From IMG/VR virus record IMGVR_UViG_3300037882_001257, positions 888 through 64,887 of that record: a DNA stretch of 64,000 nucleotides. The stretch is one strand, 5' to 3'. The position numbers and the translations under genes are program-made. Below the pieces are notes generated by a model. The model saw only the letters and a list, made by a program, of their open reading frames with translations. It was not told where the DNA came from and ran no database searches. Below are positions 1,136 through 64,000 of the stretch, one piece after another. The stretch comes from a virus. How positions within the stretch are numbered: position 1 is the stretch's first letter; each line of letters opens with the position of its first letter.

Positions 1136-2094
1136 TGGCCGTTGAATCTTACAATCCGAAATTTAAGCTGGCATCTCATTATGGAGATGACCACTATATT
1201 CAGCATTTAGAGAACGGTCTAGTATCGTTCACTGAGTGGGGTCTGCTTAAAATTGGTGCGTGGCAAGAGGTTCCCCTTTCTACATCGGGGATTGGTGGCG
1301 GGGATTTTAGTAGACTTCGACTCGGTGACGCCCCTGGATACTCTGCTGGTCAGGTGTGGGAAGGGGTCCGCAAACAGTGGGTGTATGAAACCGGTGTTAA
1401 TCACATAGATGGCACCGGTGGCACGCAAAACCCCCTTCCTGTGGGAACCCCCACAATAAATGGCGTTGCAGCAACAGGAGCATACCATGTGGACTATCCA
1501 AATGGTCGCATTATCTTTGATACTGCCATCTCTTCTTCTGCGACAGTAAAAGTGGCCCATTCTTTCAAGAACGTCCAAATTTACAAAGCAGATGAGTGCC
1601 CTTGGTATAACGAGATTCAATATCGGTCTCAAAGTCCAGAGTCTACACACTTTCAACAGCAGGGTAGCGGAAACTGGTCTGTGGGTCCAAACCATCGTAT
1701 TCAAATGCCTACCATAGTCATAGGGGCCATTGCAAGAGGTAATACGGCTCCGTTTGAAATAGGCAACGGTAAGCTATGGGGCTATCAAGACGTTATGTTT
1801 CATGTGTTCGCTGAAAACCGGGCCGATAGGAACAAGTTGGCATCTATTTTGATGGCTCAAACCGAGCTTAATATATGGCTGTATGACTCTAATATTGTAT
1901 CTGCTAGCGGAGCTTTTCCACTAGATTATAGGGGTGAATTTGTCGGCTCTAATATGTATCCTGATATAGTGTCGGAAACCAACTATAGATATAGACGGGC
2001 TAAGTTTAGAAGTGGGGTTTTACTAGGGGTAGAGTCCCGGCACCCCAATCTGCACGAGGGTTTGGTTAAAATGACTATGGAATTAGATTTGTAG
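1135..2094 (+). CDS. Putative tail terminator/completion protein
   Basis: 319 aa; contains a beta-rich YHVDYPNGRIIFD motif typical of virion proteins; directly precedes the tube gene. Confidence 0.45.
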   Translation: MAVESYNPKFKLASHYGDDHYIQHLENGLVSFTEWGLLKIGAWQEVPLSTSGIGGGDFSRLRLGDAPGYSAGQVWEGVRKQWVYETGVNHIDGTGGTQNPLPVGTPTINGVAATGAYHVDYPNGRIIFDTAISSSATVKVAHSFKNVQIYKADECPWYNEIQYRSQSPESTHFQQQGSGNWSVGPNHRIQMPTIVIGAIARGNTAPFEIGNGKLWGYQDVMFHVFAENRADRNKLASILMAQTELNIWLYDSNIVSASGAFPLDYRGEFVGSNMYPDIVSETNYRYRRAKFRSGVLLGVESRHPNLHEGLVKMTMELDL

Positions 2095-2104
2095 GTGTAT
2101 TATA
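2094..2104 (+). promoter_or_regulatory. GGTGTATTATA putative phage promoter motif
   Basis: The same 11-mer recurs on the - strand at 54415-54425 and 57164-57174. This copy is about 45 nt upstream of the tail tube start. Confidence 0.5.
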
Positions 2105-50261: not shown

Positions 50262-50295
50262 ATAAAAGAAACAGAAGCGGGAGGAATCTCCCGCT
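50262..50295 (-). terminator. Intrinsic terminator downstream of the HNH gene
   Basis: AGCGGGAG-ATTC-CTCCCGCT stem followed by TCTGTTTCTTTT on the - strand. Confidence 0.65.
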
Positions 50296-50319
50296 CCTAT
50301 AGTATACACCCCGAATCCG

Positions 50320-50919
50320 CTAAGGCAAGTCGATTCCCTCGCGCAACTTCAAGATTTCGTGATACGACCTCGGCAAATAAGGCTCCCATTCTGGCTCAAT
50401 TAGATGCCAAGGCTTTAGACCGAGAACATAATGAGCAGCCGGTGGTTGCACCGGAGCCTTCTTGAGCTTTAGTCCACACTTTTCTAGCGTGGTATCAGCT
50501 TTCTTTCTATTGCAAGCATAGCAACAGGTTACAATGTTAGTCCAGTGCGTAGGACTTCCCTTACGCTTTTCTTTGCACCACTGGGCACGCGATATAACGT
50601 GGTCAAAGGTTAGGCTACCCATTGTAGGGTCAACTACACCACAATACTGACACTTTAGCCGGTCTCTGATATAAATGTTAGACCGGGAAAAGGCAACCTT
50701 GTCCTTGCGCTTGACGTATTCAGGTACTCTGACTACGGCAGGCACAGGAAACTTTCTATCGTTAGTAGCTTTAACGAAATCATTCTTAAAGAAGTCTACT
50801 ACCTGATAAGCAGGGTTTTCAATAGCTCGTTTCCACGAAACCATAGACATAGCACTAAAGTCCGCATTTAGTACAAGGGCTCTTTTGTGAAGATGTCCTA
50901 GTTTGTTCTTCTTCATCAT
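50320..50919 (-). CDS. HNH endonuclease (McrA/HNH_5-like)
   Basis: ALVLNADF, PAVVR, SRSNIYIRDRLKCQYCG, TFDHVI and NIVTCCYACNRKK. Confidence 0.9.
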   Translation of the reverse strand: MMKKNKLGHLHKRALVLNADFSAMSMVSWKRAIENPAYQVVDFFKNDFVKATNDRKFPVPAVVRVPEYVKRKDKVAFSRSNIYIRDRLKCQYCGVVDPTMGSLTFDHVISRAQWCKEKRKGSPTHWTNIVTCCYACNRKKADTTLEKCGLKLKKAPVQPPAAHYVLGLKPWHLIEPEWEPYLPRSYHEILKLREGIDLP

Positions 50920-51586: not shown

Positions 51587-51653
51587 AATCTAAAGCCCCT
51601 TTATTAAATTGTCAATCGTAAGTTCCTACATTATACTCCCAAAAATTTCTGTG

Positions 51654-53999
51654 TCAAGCCCTTTCGCACGAACCGCCCGTGCAGGCTACAGCTTGAGAAA
51701 TCGTGGTGTTGTCCTCAGTCTCAATCATCATTTGGTAATCAACGGTTGCCAGCGAGGACGCCAAATCACAATACAGCTTCCAATTATACACATCTTTCAT
51801 GCAGTATGTGAGTTTTTTCACATCTGAACCCATGTATTTATTGGCAAACTTAATCATCTTATGAAGAAATTCCACCTTTTGGTGTGACAAACGGTTAAAT
51901 TCCAAGAATTGTTCGGGTGTTTCTGCCTTCCAGTTAAAAGCACTTTTCCAGTCATTATCTACGGCAAACTTGCAGGCTTCCCACAGATTATCCTCGAAAG
52001 CCCCCAAAGCATCGCTAATTAAACCGCTGGTCCAAATGGCGGCATCGCCGTATTCCTTCACAATCTCTTTGGTAGTCAAAACCGCCACAAACGGAGCCTG
52101 CGGATAGTCCTTATCGCCTGACTGAGGCAGCAAAGAAATACCACAGAACATATCTCTATGGTCATAGATATACTCAGTAACTTCCGCCCACTCGTGAGGC
52201 ATAACAGTGATAGTGTTACTTACATTGTGTCTAAGCCACGGTTGAGTACATAAGTCCAAGTTAGTGCCAGCACAAACCCAGTTTTCTTGAGTGGATTTTA
52301 CAACCCCTAATAGTTCTATAGCACCAATTTGATTCTTGAGTTTACTACCATCAGGAACTTCAATAGGGAACGTGATAATATCATCAGTCTTAGCAGATGA
52401 CCACACAGACTCTTCACAATGATTAGGGTTGACATTCTTGAAATACTGATAGACTACTTCATCCTTATTCGCCTGCATACGACGCAGGTATCGCTTGGCG
52501 TGATGAGGATGAATTCCAGAACTAGTGCCCAACAGACACGAGGTAGTACCTTCTGGCTTACACACAGTTGTTCTAGCAGCAGGGTTAATACCAATCAAAG
52601 CCGCCACTCTCTTATTGACAGCCTTAACGTGTTCCGCTACTTTTCTTTGATTCTCAGGGTCTAATACAATCTCTGGCTTCTCCATCACGCCAGTCATAGA
52701 AACCCCTAAGAGGGCTTCTCGTTTGCAAATAGCTTCTGAAACAGGACCAAGGTAATCAAACTTTGTATATCCGGCCTGTAGCGTCCCGATAATAGCAGCG
52801 GCCTCTCCGCGCTCCATAAAGTCCTCAACACTTTTAATTGATGAGGCATTAATCGTGGACAGGTTGCAAAATTCCCAGCCGGATGCAAGTCCAATATCTT
52901 TGAGGGGTTTTCTATATCCATTCCCGTCATATGTCTCCATGAACTTAGAATATTTGTCCTGGTCCACAATTTGGTAGCACCAGAATTCTACTTCCACACA
53001 CGGATTGAAATTTGCCTCCGGGTCATCTGCCCATACGAACCCAGGCTCGCCCCACTGTTTAGTATTTTCTATCAGCGCTTGGAACTGCTCAAAGGAGGTT
53101 TTATCACGCAGCAACAGAACAGAGTTGTTTGAGCGCGCCCGCTGTGGATTTTCTATCATCCAATTCCCTGTTTTTGCCTGCAACATTTCAATGTCATCTG
53201 CACTGAAAATGGCAATGGTGGCTGAGCGGCGAACACCACCGGAGAGAACCGCATCGGACGCGAACATTGTAATGTCGTAAGCATCAATGGGGCGAAGTCT
53301 AGTTTGGCCCTTAATCACACAGCGGTCCAGCAACTTACGAATTTCTTCTATGGAGGTCTTAAGACCACCTGGACCTGGGGCTTTACCGACACCGGAACTA
53401 AGTACAGAACCCTTTGGGCGGATTAGAGAATAGTCGAACTTTACAAAGTCTACGTTAGCATATTCTGCAAATGCTTCCATCCCAGGCTGCACACCAAAAT
53501 AATAGGTGAGCAGTACGCCTAAAGCGTCAGCCCAGCCTTCAATAGTATCTGGTATTACAAATGTTTTTTCTACTAAACAATCAGTTACAAAAAATCCTGG
53601 TAACCTACGAGCTTGGAATTCTGGCAACTTCGCTACGTGATGCTTCTGCACAGAAAAACCGGTTCCGCAGCCACAGAGAAGTAGCCAGAAAGTTTCTTGA
53701 AAGAAACGAAGGCGGTCACAGTATGACGCACAACAATTGTAGCCCCTGGCGTTAGTCTTAAGCATGGGAGCGCCCCCGTATTGGAGGGCTCTTTGTGAGC
53801 CTAATACCTTCTTCTTGAGCATCATGTCGTATGCGAAGTCAATGTCAGCATCGACACCCTTAGAGGCATAGGTGTCAACCATCATACCCTTCACTCTACT
53901 GACCGCCTCTTTCCACTCTTCTCTTCTATACTCACTTTTCAACCATCTTGCATACTTAGATGTAAAAGTATAATCCATCATCTCGTTCAATGCCGACAT
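51654..53999 (-). CDS. nrdJ: Class II (adenosylcobalamin-dependent) ribonucleotide reductase, monomeric RTPR type
   Basis: SQRALQYGG, GYNC, GCGTGFSV, VLSGGVRRSA, GEPG, NPCVE, FCNLS, TVCKPEGTTS and C-terminal CTGGSC. No beta subunit is visible. Confidence 0.92.
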   Translation of the reverse strand: MSALNEMMDYTFTSKYARWLKSEYRREEWKEAVSRVKGMMVDTYASKGVDADIDFAYDMMLKKKVLGSQRALQYGGAPMLKTNARGYNCCASYCDRLRFFQETFWLLLCGCGTGFSVQKHHVAKLPEFQARRLPGFFVTDCLVEKTFVIPDTIEGWADALGVLLTYYFGVQPGMEAFAEYANVDFVKFDYSLIRPKGSVLSSGVGKAPGPGGLKTSIEEIRKLLDRCVIKGQTRLRPIDAYDITMFASDAVLSGGVRRSATIAIFSADDIEMLQAKTGNWMIENPQRARSNNSVLLLRDKTSFEQFQALIENTKQWGEPGFVWADDPEANFNPCVEVEFWCYQIVDQDKYSKFMETYDGNGYRKPLKDIGLASGWEFCNLSTINASSIKSVEDFMERGEAAAIIGTLQAGYTKFDYLGPVSEAICKREALLGVSMTGVMEKPEIVLDPENQRKVAEHVKAVNKRVAALIGINPAARTTVCKPEGTTSCLLGTSSGIHPHHAKRYLRRMQANKDEVVYQYFKNVNPNHCEESVWSSAKTDDIITFPIEVPDGSKLKNQIGAIELLGVVKSTQENWVCAGTNLDLCTQPWLRHNVSNTITVMPHEWAEVTEYIYDHRDMFCGISLLPQSGDKDYPQAPFVAVLTTKEIVKEYGDAAIWTSGLISDALGAFEDNLWEACKFAVDNDWKSAFNWKAETPEQFLEFNRLSHQKVEFLHKMIKFANKYMGSDVKKLTYCMKDVYNWKLYCDLASSLATVDYQMMIETEDNTTISQAVACTGGSCERA

Positions 54000-54001
54000 T
54001 A

Positions 54002-54244
54002 CTACTCCGTATCGTTATCTCTAGTCTGTTGCTTTTCTTCTGCGTAAGTCCCAACGTCTTTAGCCAGCTTCTCAGCTTCCGACGCAGATGGTAAAGCCCG
54101 TTCGACTTTCTTCTTGCGTGGCTTTCTGGTTTGATGCCGGTCCCAAAAATCAGAAAGTGTATCAGCGCTATCAGTCTTGATAACTTTCTTTTTGCCAGTT
54201 GGTTCACCTTTAGCATTCCGAATCTCAATTGCTAGTTCAAACAT
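54002..54244 (-). CDS. Small basic hypothetical protein upstream of nrdJ
   Basis: 80 aa with an AAGGA RBS; its stop is 2 nt before the nrdJ start. Confidence 0.6.
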   Translation of the reverse strand: MFELAIEIRNAKGEPTGKKKVIKTDSADTLSDFWDRHQTRKPRKKKVERALPSASEAEKLAKDVGTYAEEKQQTRDNDTE

Positions 54245-54274
54245 TTCATTGTCCTTGTTAAGAAAAACCCACTG

Positions 54275-54310
54275 AAAAAAAAGACCCGTCTACAACAAAG
54301 TAAACGGGTC
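54275..54310 (-). terminator. Intrinsic terminator upstream of the 80-aa gene/nrdJ block
   Basis: GACCCGTTTAC-TTTGTT-GTAGACGGGTC (11 bp, one G-U) followed by T8. Confidence 0.85.
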
Positions 54311-54409
54311 GTGATTGTCTCAGCGACACTTTAATAAGTGGCTTGTCGGAGGTGTCGCTGTAACTTAAATGATGCCACGCAGGGCACAAAGTTCTTTATT
54401 CCGACCCAC
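54275..54409 (-). ncRNA. Candidate structured cis-regulatory RNA (riboswitch/attenuator-like) or sRNA
   Basis: Perfect 9-bp hairpin 54321-54329/54352-54360 whose loop is complementary to the 5' segment 54400-54409. That segment is also complementary to the terminator arm. A promoter-like motif lies 6 nt upstream. Confidence 0.45.
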
Positions 54410-54974
54410 TACTATATAATACACCGGAGAGGTCAAGCTCTCTAAATTTCAAACGGCCACCGGCCACGAATTGAAATATCTCGAAGAGCGTATCATACTC
54501 TTCATTGTGGTATTTGTTTTTCAATTCAGCATCTTTAGGAAAGACCGCTTCTTTGACACCAGCTTGCCACAAAAATAATGTGCATTGTGAACATGGTTTG
54601 TGGGTGCAATATAGAACCGTGTCTTTGGTGGAATTACCAGCCCTGGCAGCATTCAATAAAGTGTTGATTTCGCTATGAATCATCCACTGGTATTTGTGCC
54701 CATTTGGGTCTCTAACATTGGGCAAATACCGGTCATCTATGTCACGAGGAAACCCGTTATACCCCTGGGCTATCACTTGATGGTCCCGCACTAAAACTGC
54801 ACCCACTTGCGTACTGGCATCGTGGCTACGCTTAGCAGCGTCAAATGCCTGCCTTATAAAGAAGGTGTCCCAGGAGTCTCTCGATTCTAAACGAGCCTCG
54901 TCACGAAGTGCCTGATACTCTCTGAGGCGTTCTCTGGCGGCACCGCTTAGCAAAAGGTCTTGGGAGATTCGCAT
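54396..54974 (-). CDS. dCMP deaminase
   Basis: SHDASTQVGAVLV, GYNGFP, HSEIN and THKPCSQC. Confidence 0.92.
   Translation of the reverse strand: MRISQDLLLSGAARERLREYQALRDEARLESRDSWDTFFIRQAFDAAKRSHDASTQVGAVLVRDHQVIAQGYNGFPRDIDDRYLPNVRDPNGHKYQWMIHSEINTLLNAARAGNSTKDTVLYCTHKPCSQCTLFLWQAGVKEAVFPKDAELKNKYHNEEYDTLFEIFQFVAGGRLKFRELDLSGVLYSSGSE
54415..54425 (-). promoter_or_regulatory. GGTGTATTATA putative phage promoter motif (inside the 3' end of the dCMP deaminase gene)
   Basis: Identical to the copies at 2094-2104 and 57164-57174. Confidence 0.45.
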
Positions 54975-57162: not shown

Positions 57163-57819
57163 CTATAATACACCAAGTACAGTTTCGGCACTAAAAACGG
57201 AGTCAGCAAAGCCGTAGTAGATGGCTTCCTCTGCGGTCAACCACCAATCGCTCTTTTCCTTGATTTTGGCGTCTAAGAACTGGCGAGCAGCCCTTTCATT
57301 CTTGAATAGGTTAGTTTTCATGGTGGAAGCCACATAAATATCCAACATTCTTTCCCTACATTTAATGGCATATTCACCATATGACATAGCTTCGGTATGT
57401 GTACCGAACATACTTTCATAACCGTAGTGGATTAGAAAGGACGTGTGAGGCATAAGAATGCGATTATCAGCGGCCTGCATGATAATGGTTGCCATAGAAC
57501 CAATCAATCCATAGCCCAACATAGTAACTGGCACCGGACAGGTGGCAATAGCATCGTAAATGCCCATACCATCATAATAGCTGCCGCCCACGCTATTGAA
57601 ATGGATTGTGATTGGCTGAGTATTAGACAAACCCAACAAAACCCGCAACCCCTTCATAAAGGTGTCGGCCTGCCTATAGTCAATGGCAGGGTCTTCGTCG
57701 GCGTAGTGACTGTGTAGAAAAATCTCTCTAGTGTCGATTGAGACACTGTTTTGAAAGACTTCGTCAAGCAACAGGCTTTTTTGATTGCGGGTTATTCGCT
57801 TCGACATTCCACCAACCAA
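57163..57819 (-). CDS. clpP: ClpP-family serine protease
   Basis: FNSVGGSYYDGMGIYDAI, GSMAT (Ser), FLIH (His), SDWWLTAEEAIYYGFAD (Asp). Confidence 0.9.
   Translation of the reverse strand: MVGGMSKRITRNQKSLLLDEVFQNSVSIDTREIFLHSHYADEDPAIDYRQADTFMKGLRVLLGLSNTQPITIHFNSVGGSYYDGMGIYDAIATCPVPVTMLGYGLIGSMATIIMQAADNRILMPHTSFLIHYGYESMFGTHTEAMSYGEYAIKCRERMLDIYVASTMKTNLFKNERAARQFLDAKIKEKSDWWLTAEEAIYYGFADSVFSAETVLGVL
57164..57174 (-). promoter_or_regulatory. GGTGTATTATA putative phage promoter motif
   Basis: Identical 11-mer about 55 nt upstream of the 273-aa gene, overlapping the clpP stop. Confidence 0.5.
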
Positions 57820-60800: not shown

Positions 60801-60840
60801 TTGGTTGTCTCCTAAAGGAAAATTTCTTCACTTTTCCCCA

Positions 60841-61911
60841 TTATACACTCAAATTTTGCAGATACAAGAGGAGCTTGCTGGCAATTTTCCCCCAGGTGAG
60901 CTGTTCGGCGGTTTCGACACCTGCGGTGTTTGCTGGCCTGTTCTTATAGCAATATCTCATGTGTTCTATCAATTGTTCTTCCTCTTCGTAGTCGAGAGTC
61001 ATCCAACTGCCCACACCGCTCTTGAAAAACGCCCCATCTTGCGCAATTTCCAGGCCATTTTGCGGCTCGATAAGATAGGCGTTTTCTTTGGTGCAATACT
61101 CTGTATGAGCAGAATAATTTGTGGTAATAACAGGCTTACCACAGGCCATAGACTCCAAGAGTTCCATATTCCAGCCCTCGGCCCGCGCTGGAAAAACCCC
61201 GCAATCTGCCTCTTGTATAAACGCCGCTATGTCTCGGTGGGAACTAAGTGGACCAATAAACTCAATCTTACTAGCAAGCTTTAACTGTCTGTACTGGTTT
61301 ATCCACTTGAAGTTACCATCTTGCCCGATGAAGACATTGTAGTTAGCCATTCTAAGCTTAACTTTATCCTTCATAGTAAACGCCTTATCAAAGCATCTAC
61401 CTATAATGTCGTGACCCTTGCGCTTCTCCCACTTCCCTGTGTTGAAGAACACATACTCACCGGCCTTGTTTTCTTGTAACGCAGGACAGAAAATGGTAGT
61501 GTCCACACCAAGCGGAAAGGTGCTGGCAAAACGCTGGGTATCCTTGTTTACTACAGTCTGTGCCCATTTAGAGCAAACTATCAACTCATCGGGGGCCGTT
61601 AGGTGTATCTTTTCGACTGCGTTAAATTCATCTAGCTCGAAGATGGGCCAGCCAATATAAGGGCCTTTACCAACGTGTTCCAAGAGGTCATGCTGATGCC
61701 AGATTTTAAGGAAGGGGGCATTTAGATTACACGAGGTAATTCTATCTACCATCGGCTGAAAGCATGTAAGCTCTTCTGGTCTATTGACACCGAGCGGACC
61801 CTTTGGAATCAACGTAATTTCTACGCCGAGCTTATCCAGTTCGGTTGTGATGTACTTAGTTGCTATACCATAGCCGGTATTGCTGATACTACCGTTGATA
61901 ATTAGATGCAT
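60841..61911 (-). CDS. GT4 glycosyltransferase (paralog of 30719..31870)
   Basis: TGYGIAT, APDELIVCSKW, EKRKGHD and ADCGVFPARAEGWNMELLESMACGKPVITTNYS. Start taken as MHLIING. Confidence 0.88.
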   Translation of the reverse strand: MHLIINGSISNTGYGIATKYITTELDKLGVEITLIPKGPLGVNRPEELTCFQPMVDRITSCNLNAPFLKIWHQHDLLEHVGKGPYIGWPIFELDEFNAVEKIHLTAPDELIVCSKWAQTVVNKDTQRFASTFPLGVDTTIFCPALQENKAGEYVFFNTGKWEKRKGHDIIGRCFDKAFTMKDKVKLRMANYNVFIGQDGNFKWINQYRQLKLASKIEFIGPLSSHRDIAAFIQEADCGVFPARAEGWNMELLESMACGKPVITTNYSAHTEYCTKENAYLIEPQNGLEIAQDGAFFKSGVGSWMTLDYEEEEQLIEHMRYCYKNRPANTAGVETAEQLTWGKIASKLLLYLQNLSV

Positions 61912-63912: not shown

Positions 63913-64000
63913 TTTGGGTCTCCATAACAGGTGTAGATACCATATTATGCACCCAAAACAACTATTTGTTGCCGCGAATTAATCTAGACTCTGTATTAGT

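Follow-up and report, generated by a model that had tools for sequence, protein, structure and literature searches.

Phage DNA synthesis draws on rate-limiting precursors made by ribonucleotide reductase, an enzyme whose control in cells is known mainly at the protein level, through allostery and NrdR. A precedent for feedback at the RNA level comes from Mesoplasma florum, in which 2′-deoxyguanosine (2′-dG) riboswitches, variants of the purine riboswitch, lie upstream of reductase genes; to our knowledge, this is the only clear RNA precedent for reductase control. Here we describe a structured RNA encoded directly ahead of a reductase operon in an uncultured phage, within a 64,000-nucleotide stretch (the window) of the IMG/VR virus record IMGVR_UViG_3300037882_001257. 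The record as a whole is 126 kb long, is estimated to be 84% complete, and holds a single copy of the RNA, at its reductase gene. In the window the RNA stands between a promoter-like −10 box and an intrinsic terminator, with the gene of a small basic protein (p80) and that of a class II reductase of the monomeric ribonucleoside triphosphate reductase (RTPR) type downstream. By comparison with other phage sequences, this stretch is one member of a previously uncatalogued phage RNA family, which may act as a leader for the operons that follow it.

Several described systems invite comparison. Like the phage RNA, the M. florum 2′-dG riboswitch is a structured leader between a promoter and a reductase operon with an intrinsic terminator at its end, but it is bacterial and built as a three-way junction on the purine fold, whereas the phage RNA is an H-type pseudoknot with no visible antiterminator. 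The SAM-II, SAM-V and preQ1-II aptamers share with the phage RNA an interleaved two-helix topology with A-rich strands placed for the helix grooves, one helix that is strongly conserved in sequence and a loop that tolerates variable insertions. These aptamers, however, hide the ribosome-binding site (RBS) in their second helix, while the second helix of the phage RNA precedes a separate terminator or U-run, and no sequence or model match connects them. HK022 putL and putR and the lambda nut/N system are, like our RNA, phage-encoded and promoter-adjacent, with terminators to pass downstream; put and nut act in cis and need no alternative RNA pairing, and the position of p80 after the phage RNA is mirrored in lambda by the small basic N gene after nut. 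In contrast to the pseudoknot described here, put consists of two stem–loops and nut of a small hairpin; with put the likeness is one of layout alone (promoter, RNA, terminator, genes), and p80 has no similarity to lambda N. Cobalamin riboswitches, some of which control bacterial nrd genes, are also leader RNAs tied to reductase, and the enzyme in the window is of the B12-dependent type, but the phage RNA differs in that it also precedes class Ia nrdAB, which use no B12.

A covarying pseudoknot shared by distant phages

A sequence-only reading of the window had listed a promoter-like box, a 5′ segment, a small hairpin, a 9-bp helix and a terminator with a run of eight U residues, and had proposed from them a structured RNA between promoter and terminator at the head of the reductase block. 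All of these elements lie where that reading had placed them (Table 1; coordinates of RNA elements refer to the minus strand of the window), and the structured RNA is genuine, judging by its conservation across lineages. Members of the family were gathered with RNA-only DNA patterns, a protein-alignment search with p80 and two rounds of covariance-model building, which together yielded an alignment of 39 members and a total of ∼45 distinct phage contig sequences (individual lineages carry handles such as L084). Model R2, built without the window, scores the window copy at 33.2 bits (E = 2e-4) and separates members (≥29 bits) from pattern-matched coding-region decoys (≤25 bits); it finds no member in 81 loci with an RTPR gene 58% identical to that of the window. 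The window has no close relative, with its nearest reductases being 62% identical (L083-L085) and its nearest dCMP deaminase, the product of the gene upstream of the RNA, 55% identical. Even so distant a spacer as the ∼300 nt between the deaminase and p80 genes of L084 and L085 has in common with the window the promoter box, the 5′ segment, the place of the hairpin, the AGCGRCAC...GUGUCGCU helix and the terminator.

Read from the 5′ end, the members share one plan. The −10 box is followed after ∼6 nt by the 5′ strand of helix P1 (5-9 nt, purine-rich), the junction AUAAAGA and a hairpin of variable length, P2; then come GUUA, A or C, and AGCGRCAC (the 5′ strand of helix P3), 1-5 nt, the 3′ strand of P1 and a variable loop; and last an A-rich stretch, GUGYYGCU (the 3′ strand of P3, GUGUCGCU), an A-rich linker and the terminator. 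The window carries the family junction AUAAAGA, the block GUUA-A/C-AGCGRCAC and its partner GUGYYGCU. Because P1 and P3 interleave, the fold is an H-type pseudoknot. In the member alignment the −10 box, with a nearly invariant ATAATA, stands at a fixed distance before P1. The variable loop is 13-15 nt long in the window and L206, the only compact forms, which have a minimal 90-nt core, and is a hairpin domain of 60-140 nt in most members, with loop inserts across members ranging from 22 to 142 nt.

Folding energy alone is unremarkable: compared with shuffles, the 156-nt stretch has z = −2.6 and the 90-nt core z = −0.2. As the core is no more stable than shuffled sequence, we dropped thermodynamic stability as evidence, and the case for more than chance is therefore made by comparison across sequences. 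In P1, standard pairs account for 97.5% of the pairs in 38 distinct sequences (alignment A11), versus 77% after shuffling and 28-40% with the partner columns slid, with the caveat that these pair counts come from alignments fitted to the model and hence biased toward structure. All 7 modelled P1 pairs change on both sides, and the P1 covariation score of 0.69, compared with 0.27 in shuffles, was reached by none of 500 shuffles. Nearly every lineage has its own distinct, fully complementary P1, as when L084 carries ACCGGA/UUCGGU where the window has GUCGGA/UCCGAC. Despite the alignment bias, P1 strands that differ between lineages yet stay complementary are hard to explain without real pairing. 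The pseudoknot that the earlier reading had drawn from the window, in which the 5′ segment pairs into the 9-bp helix loop, is thus conserved with compensatory changes and holds up when homologues are examined for covariation.

The remaining helices behave similarly. The basal pairs of P2 are 98% paired across members and two of four covary, while the distal part varies in length and sequence; the hairpin as a whole stays in position even as its sequence changes completely. P3 is conserved in sequence yet covaries at two positions, the outer pair alternating between A-U and C-G and the sixth pair among A-U, G-U and G-C; in L173 an entirely different 9-bp helix occupies the place of P3. This conservation is not that of a protein-coding sequence, because the deaminase stop codon precedes the promoter in L083 and L084, the upstream genes differ among members, and the inserts are of unequal length. 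A 43-codon open reading frame (ORF) that starts with TTG (54389-54258) was likewise rejected as a conserved small ORF, since members differ there by very unequal insertions and paired changes. These comparisons demonstrate the fold and its conservation, and on their evidence it is RNA structure that is under selection.

At the 3′ end, a terminator hairpin with a U-run, or P3 with a U-run, closes 37 of the 39 members. A separate terminator hairpin and U-run is present in 28 of them, and in nine more, effectively ten, the U-run comes directly after P3. In these ∼10 members only the U-run parts the RNA from the coding region, so that the RNA is effectively a 5′ untranslated region (UTR). In most lineages the RBS and start codon of the reductase operon follow ∼15-35 nt after the terminator or U-run. 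The terminator hairpin of the window has 11 pairs, 6 of them G-C, and a folding energy of −18 kcal/mol; by sequence it is a G+C-rich hairpin followed by a U-run, the form of an intrinsic terminator, and the A-tract of the linker before it is able to pair with its U-tract. The transcript is predicted to start near 54410, ∼6-8 nt 3′ of the −10 box GGTGTATTAT. Transcription from this promoter, termination at the hairpin and any regulation between the two are what we infer from such sequence features.

Table 1. Features of the RNA locus in the window, and gene arrangements that follow the RNA in the family
Feature	Position	Strand	Remarks
−10 box GGTGTATTAT	54425-54416	-	Promoter-like; read directly from sequence
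5′ segment GUGGGUCGGA (P1 5′ strand)	54409-54400	-	Core GUCGGA 54405-54400 pairs with UCCGAC 54350-54345; extension GUGG 54409-54406 pairs with CCAC 54341-54338
Junction J1/2 AUAAAGA	54399-54393	-	Single-stranded, conserved; AaaGA nearly invariant in 39-member alignment; holds dCMP deaminase stop codon UAA, 54398-54396
P2 hairpin	54393-54362	-	Nested-fold prediction; basal stem AACUU/AAGUU, 54393-54389/54366-54362; distal stem GUGCC/GGCAU, 54387-54383/54376-54372
J2/3 A and P3 5′ strand CAGCGACAC	54361-54352	-	Highly conserved; family consensus GUUA-A/C-AGCGRCAC; P3 is a perfect 9-bp helix CAGCGACAC/GUGUCGCUG, 54360-54352/54329-54321
P1 3′ strand	54350-54338	-	UCCGAC 54350-54345, bulge AAG (3 nt), CCAC 54341-54338
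A-rich loop end UUAUUAAA and P3 3′ strand GUGUCGCUG	54337-54321	-	P3 3′ strand itself 54329-54321
Linker AGACAAUCAC	54320-54311	-	Family pattern: A-rich stretch, then UYAC
Intrinsic terminator	54310-54275	-	Hairpin 54310-54283, U8 54282-54275; also found by terminator scan
dCMP deaminase gene	54974-54396	-	PF00383, E = 4e-22; last codons overlap promoter, P1 and J1/2
p80 (80-aa basic protein)	54244-54002	-	First gene 3′ of the RNA
Class II reductase, monomeric RTPR type, 781 aa	53999-51654	-	PHROG 367, E = 7e-93
RNA, p80, RTPR type			Window, L206, L204, L195, L198, L193, L172, L083/85, L370, L431
RNA, p80, other class II			L173, L196, L420
RNA, class II directly			L186/188, L375, L445
RNA, p80, class Ia nrdA (ATP cone), then nrdB			L164-166, L189, L182
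RNA, nrdA directly			L163, L184, L192, L199, L364 and others

Linkage to reductase operons

Every member of the family directly precedes a co-oriented reductase operon, and in a second, independent sample collected with the P3-helix pattern only, 18 of 18 sequences adjoin reductase genes, which demonstrates the genetic linkage. The sequence-only reading knew the RNA at one such locus; the link proves far stronger than could be known from there, as all members found by RNA pattern precede a reductase operon. Three reductase types follow the RNA, namely the RTPR-like class II enzyme, another class II type and class Ia nrdAB. The genes upstream of the RNA differ among members, and some have no upstream deaminase gene.

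Within the window, the deaminase ORF ends inside the 5′ part of the RNA, so the 5′ segment is at the same time the last codons of that gene, as had been proposed, and the order of an 80-aa gene, a B12-dependent-type reductase, phoH and an HNH gene after the RNA is confirmed by ORF and profile matches. The reductase matches the Lactobacillus ribonucleoside triphosphate reductase of PDB 1L1L with E = 2.5e-21, and its phage relatives carry the annotation adenosylcobalamin-dependent RTPR; Pfam-A has no match for it at E ≤0.001. Its phage clade is large and divergent, and viral and metagenome collections each contain >550 matches. The p80 gene abuts the reductase gene, its start codon comes only 30 nt after the U-run, and there is no −10-like box between the terminator and the p80/reductase start. 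For that reason, the downstream genes of the window must be read through the terminator.

The p80 family consists of proteins of 60-110 aa with the N-terminal motif FE.x.L.V+D..GNPTGK.K, a Lys/Arg-rich stretch and often a C-terminal helix, and homologues are present in L083, L085, L164-166, L172, L173, L182, L193, L195, L196, L198, L204, L206, L370, L420 and L431. For the window protein there was no Pfam or PHROG match, no Atlas lead and no Foldseek match in PDB below E = 1. Its AlphaFold2 model (mean predicted local distance difference test score 81) has a beta-hairpin, a helix, a basic linker and a C-terminal helix. No sequencing run was listed for the window; at the L085 locus, one marine metatranscriptome gave a single 156-nt contig, which falls wholly inside p80 and bears on neither transcript ends nor read-through. 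In L195 the RTPR-type ORF after p80 runs for at least 1046 codons without reaching its end within the locus; because this far exceeds the usual 775-782, the ORF may hold an intein or a fused domain.

Relation to known RNA families

The sequence-only reading had recognised no cobalamin riboswitch, a judgement upheld by Rfam, in which we found no other matching family either. A cmscan against Rfam 15, run on window positions 53900-54700 with a limit of E = 10, on six member loci with a limit of E = 1, and on L084, gave nothing relevant; the cobalamin models matched neither the window (E up to 10) nor the six member loci (E up to 1), and the purine/2′-dG, SAM-II/V and preQ1 models matched neither the window nor related loci. 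The best Rfam row was the PyrR binding site RF00515, which we rejected, as it scored 23.1 bits (E ∼1) against a cut-off of 54 bits and rested mostly on the terminator. A ToxI-like RNA of a type III toxin–antitoxin system was also rejected, there being no tandem repeat in 54150-54500 and no family match for p80.

In GenBank phages, neither the window region nor two members had a real blastn match and p80 had no tblastn match; these searches turned up no cultured phage with the motif. In a pattern scan of bacterial and archaeal genomes, none of the 120 matches listed has both the P1 and the P3 partner. A literature search found nothing on such a motif; among phages, a glutamine riboswitch at a tmRNA (transfer-messenger RNA) gene has been described in a methylophage paper (PMC9004378).

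How the RNA could act

We read the family as new cis-acting leader RNAs that gate transcription into phage reductase operons, a reading in which we place about as much confidence as doubt. A host-type promoter (−10 box GGTGTATWAT) would start the transcript, the first bases of which would form strand 1 of the H-type pseudoknot, and the RNA would then act in cis, setting how much transcription passes the terminator into p80 and the reductase gene. The input could be a metabolite of the nucleotide pool that binds to the pseudoknot, or it could be the basic protein p80; alternatively, the RNA could affect RNA polymerase directly. We favour a cis-acting role because the linkage to reductase is complete, the distance from terminator to start codon is short, and in ∼10 members the RNA is itself the 5′ UTR.

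Besides the alignment bias already mentioned, several points weigh against this reading. No conserved alternative pairing links the fold to the terminator, and the terminators look constitutive, since they are strong and come with A-tracts. Hairpins with U-runs before the next RBS also occur at 56268-56238 and 50300-50271, so that this arrangement is not special to the reductase locus. Further, in a group of members with nrdA (L364, L434, L426, L418, L358, L439 and L440), a conserved box, GGTACAAT or GGTACTAT with (T)TAGT after it, resembles the family −10 box and lies in the ∼85-nt spacer between terminator and nrdA. This GGTACAAT-like box, which a sigma-70 scan did not call, may be a second promoter for nrdA in that group; if it is real, nrdA there would not depend on the transcript of the RNA.

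A narrower form of the leader reading, which we put forward tentatively and consider improbable, is that the pseudoknot is the sensor of a new phage riboswitch class that would bind a deoxynucleotide or other DNA-precursor signal and adjust reductase expression. Such a riboswitch might work without a classical antiterminator, for example with the ligand-bound fold itself deciding whether the polymerase stops at the U-run or terminator after P3.

A promoter, an RNA and a strong terminator in succession are also the classic layout of a small-RNA gene, and it is possible, if less probable, that the element is a stand-alone small RNA (∼135 nt in the window, 200-280 nt elsewhere) that acts in trans, for instance on a protein or a host mRNA, and merely travels with the reductase module, while the downstream genes rely on leaky read-through or promoters of their own or elsewhere. 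In nearly all members the predicted transcript start lies a few bases 5′ of the fold, which is consistent with this, as are the lack of a conserved antiterminator and the possible second promoter before nrdA in one group. Against it, all members adjoin, and share an orientation with, the leading gene of a reductase operon, across three reductase types and with changing upstream neighbours. In most lineages the 15-35 nt before the start codon also leave no room for a promoter, and the ∼10 members with a mere U-run after P3 have an RNA that is effectively part of the downstream message.

In most lineages p80 directly follows the RNA, irrespective of reductase type, which raises the question of whether the RNA is a binding partner of p80 or of RNA polymerase. 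The complex could make the polymerase resistant to terminators, as lambda N/nut and HK022 put do, or the terminator could set the ratio of RNA to protein. The Lys/Arg-rich stretch of p80 is typical of nucleic-acid binders, and processive antitermination needs no alternative RNA pairing, which fits the outcome of the pairing tests given below. We nevertheless consider this unlikely, as several lineages have the RNA without an adjacent p80, L177 and L178 have p80 without the RNA, and p80 resembles no known fold or family. On five contigs with the RNA and no adjacent p80, the protein was not found elsewhere, though these contigs are only 11-34% complete.

The sequence-only reading had proposed a switch in which the 5′ segment toggles between the pseudoknot, which leaves the terminator intact, and an antiterminator pairing with CGACCC (54311-54306), in response to a ligand or to ribosomes finishing the deaminase gene. 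In the window, AGUGGGUCG can indeed pair with CGACCCGUU, in which CGACCC(GUU) spans 54311-54303, over 9 bp with G-U (p ∼0.05 compared with shuffles), and the deaminase stop codon does lie within J1/2. In contrast, the other 12 lineages compared, all of which have a separate terminator, form 3-6 bp between 5′ segment and terminator 5′ arm, with p ≥0.7 in 11 and 0.06 in one, which is chance level, and one p = 0.05 among 13 tests is what chance would give. Pairing between the 3′ strand of P3 and the terminator arm is not conserved outside the window either, again at chance level. With no conserved antiterminator and no conserved P3/terminator pairing, the competing pairing of a terminator/antiterminator expression platform is missing, and the family has no visible classical switch. 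Nor is ribosome sensing general, as the deaminase stop comes before the promoter in L083 and L084 and other members have different upstream genes or no upstream deaminase; by sequence, the coupling to the deaminase stop is particular to the window and a few relatives. A switch confined to the window is for these reasons very unlikely in our view.

Finally, an ordinary promoter and terminator between genes with chance hairpins in between, a reading that the unremarkable folding energy of the core and similar U-run hairpins elsewhere in the window might suggest, can be practically dismissed, since the fold recurs with compensatory changes in ∼45 sequences and the covariance model parts members from decoys.

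What is new here is a widespread, strongly covarying and uncatalogued RNA tied to three reductase types, in phages that are large, aquatic and uncultured. Structured RNAs that lie close to a promoter and have a terminator at their end are a known kind, while the pseudoknotted family itself is new, and it is unusual in joining an exclusive link to phage reductase operons of several enzyme classes with the absence of a visible switch. The RNA probably helps to control or serve the phage's supply of DNA building blocks, and its compact core, defined helices and read-out in the form of terminator passage make it a concrete candidate for control of DNA precursors at the RNA level. If it binds a metabolite, it would be a new, phage-specific riboswitch class; as a small RNA or p80 partner, it would amount to a new RNA or RNA–protein module of phages. 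In either case, phage genome annotation gains a new landmark, together with a seed alignment from which an Rfam family could be built.

Promoter boxes and other elements

The box GGTGTATWAT, with at most one mismatch, has 11 matches in the window, a number that chance could give, and about seven of them are at gene ends on the coding strand. Matches that stand before the next gene are at 2094-2103 (+) and at 57165-57174, 60840-60849, 63944-63953 and 51630-51639 (all −), and ∼150 distant relatives have this box conserved where their deaminase gene ends. From this distribution, GGTGTATWAT looks like the main promoter −10 element of this phage, often without a −35 box. An NrdR operator was considered for the box and rejected, as by eye only a partial half-match with the NrdR box consensus is seen, and the box also precedes unrelated genes.

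Hairpins near promoters or genes recur in the window. At 50271-50338 (−), the end of the HNH gene contains a sigma-70-like promoter (TTGCCT, 16 nt, TATACT), and 5 nt past this promoter comes a 13-pair hairpin with a U-rich tail, followed by the RBS and start codon of the next gene, making this a second promoter–hairpin–gene case. At 56268-56238 (−), a strong terminator-like hairpin with U7 stands between genes of the same strand, with an RBS directly after it and no promoter visible. With the RBS right after the U-run and no promoter between, read-through terminators seem, as far as the sequence tells, to be part of the operon design of this phage.

A second, different RNA-like element lies ∼160 nt upstream of the reductase start in more distant relatives (for example L041:2850-3000), between a GGTGTA promoter box and the RBS of the RTPR-type gene. 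It is present in L021, L033, L041, L059, L068, L075, L090 and L097, and also in L113, L118, L130, L145, L148, L153, L158 and L160. It has an outer helix GGCC(C)/(G)GGCC around CUCUAACC and a hairpin UGAUUUAUCAUA...UAUGA..AAUCA, has no terminator, and gave no Rfam match on L041. In many distant relatives, among them L005, L008, L010, L011, L012 and L027, the 110-175-nt gap between the deaminase and reductase genes holds no RNA element and instead a ∼40-codon hydrophobic ORF, the ATG of which overlaps the deaminase stop codon (ATGA).

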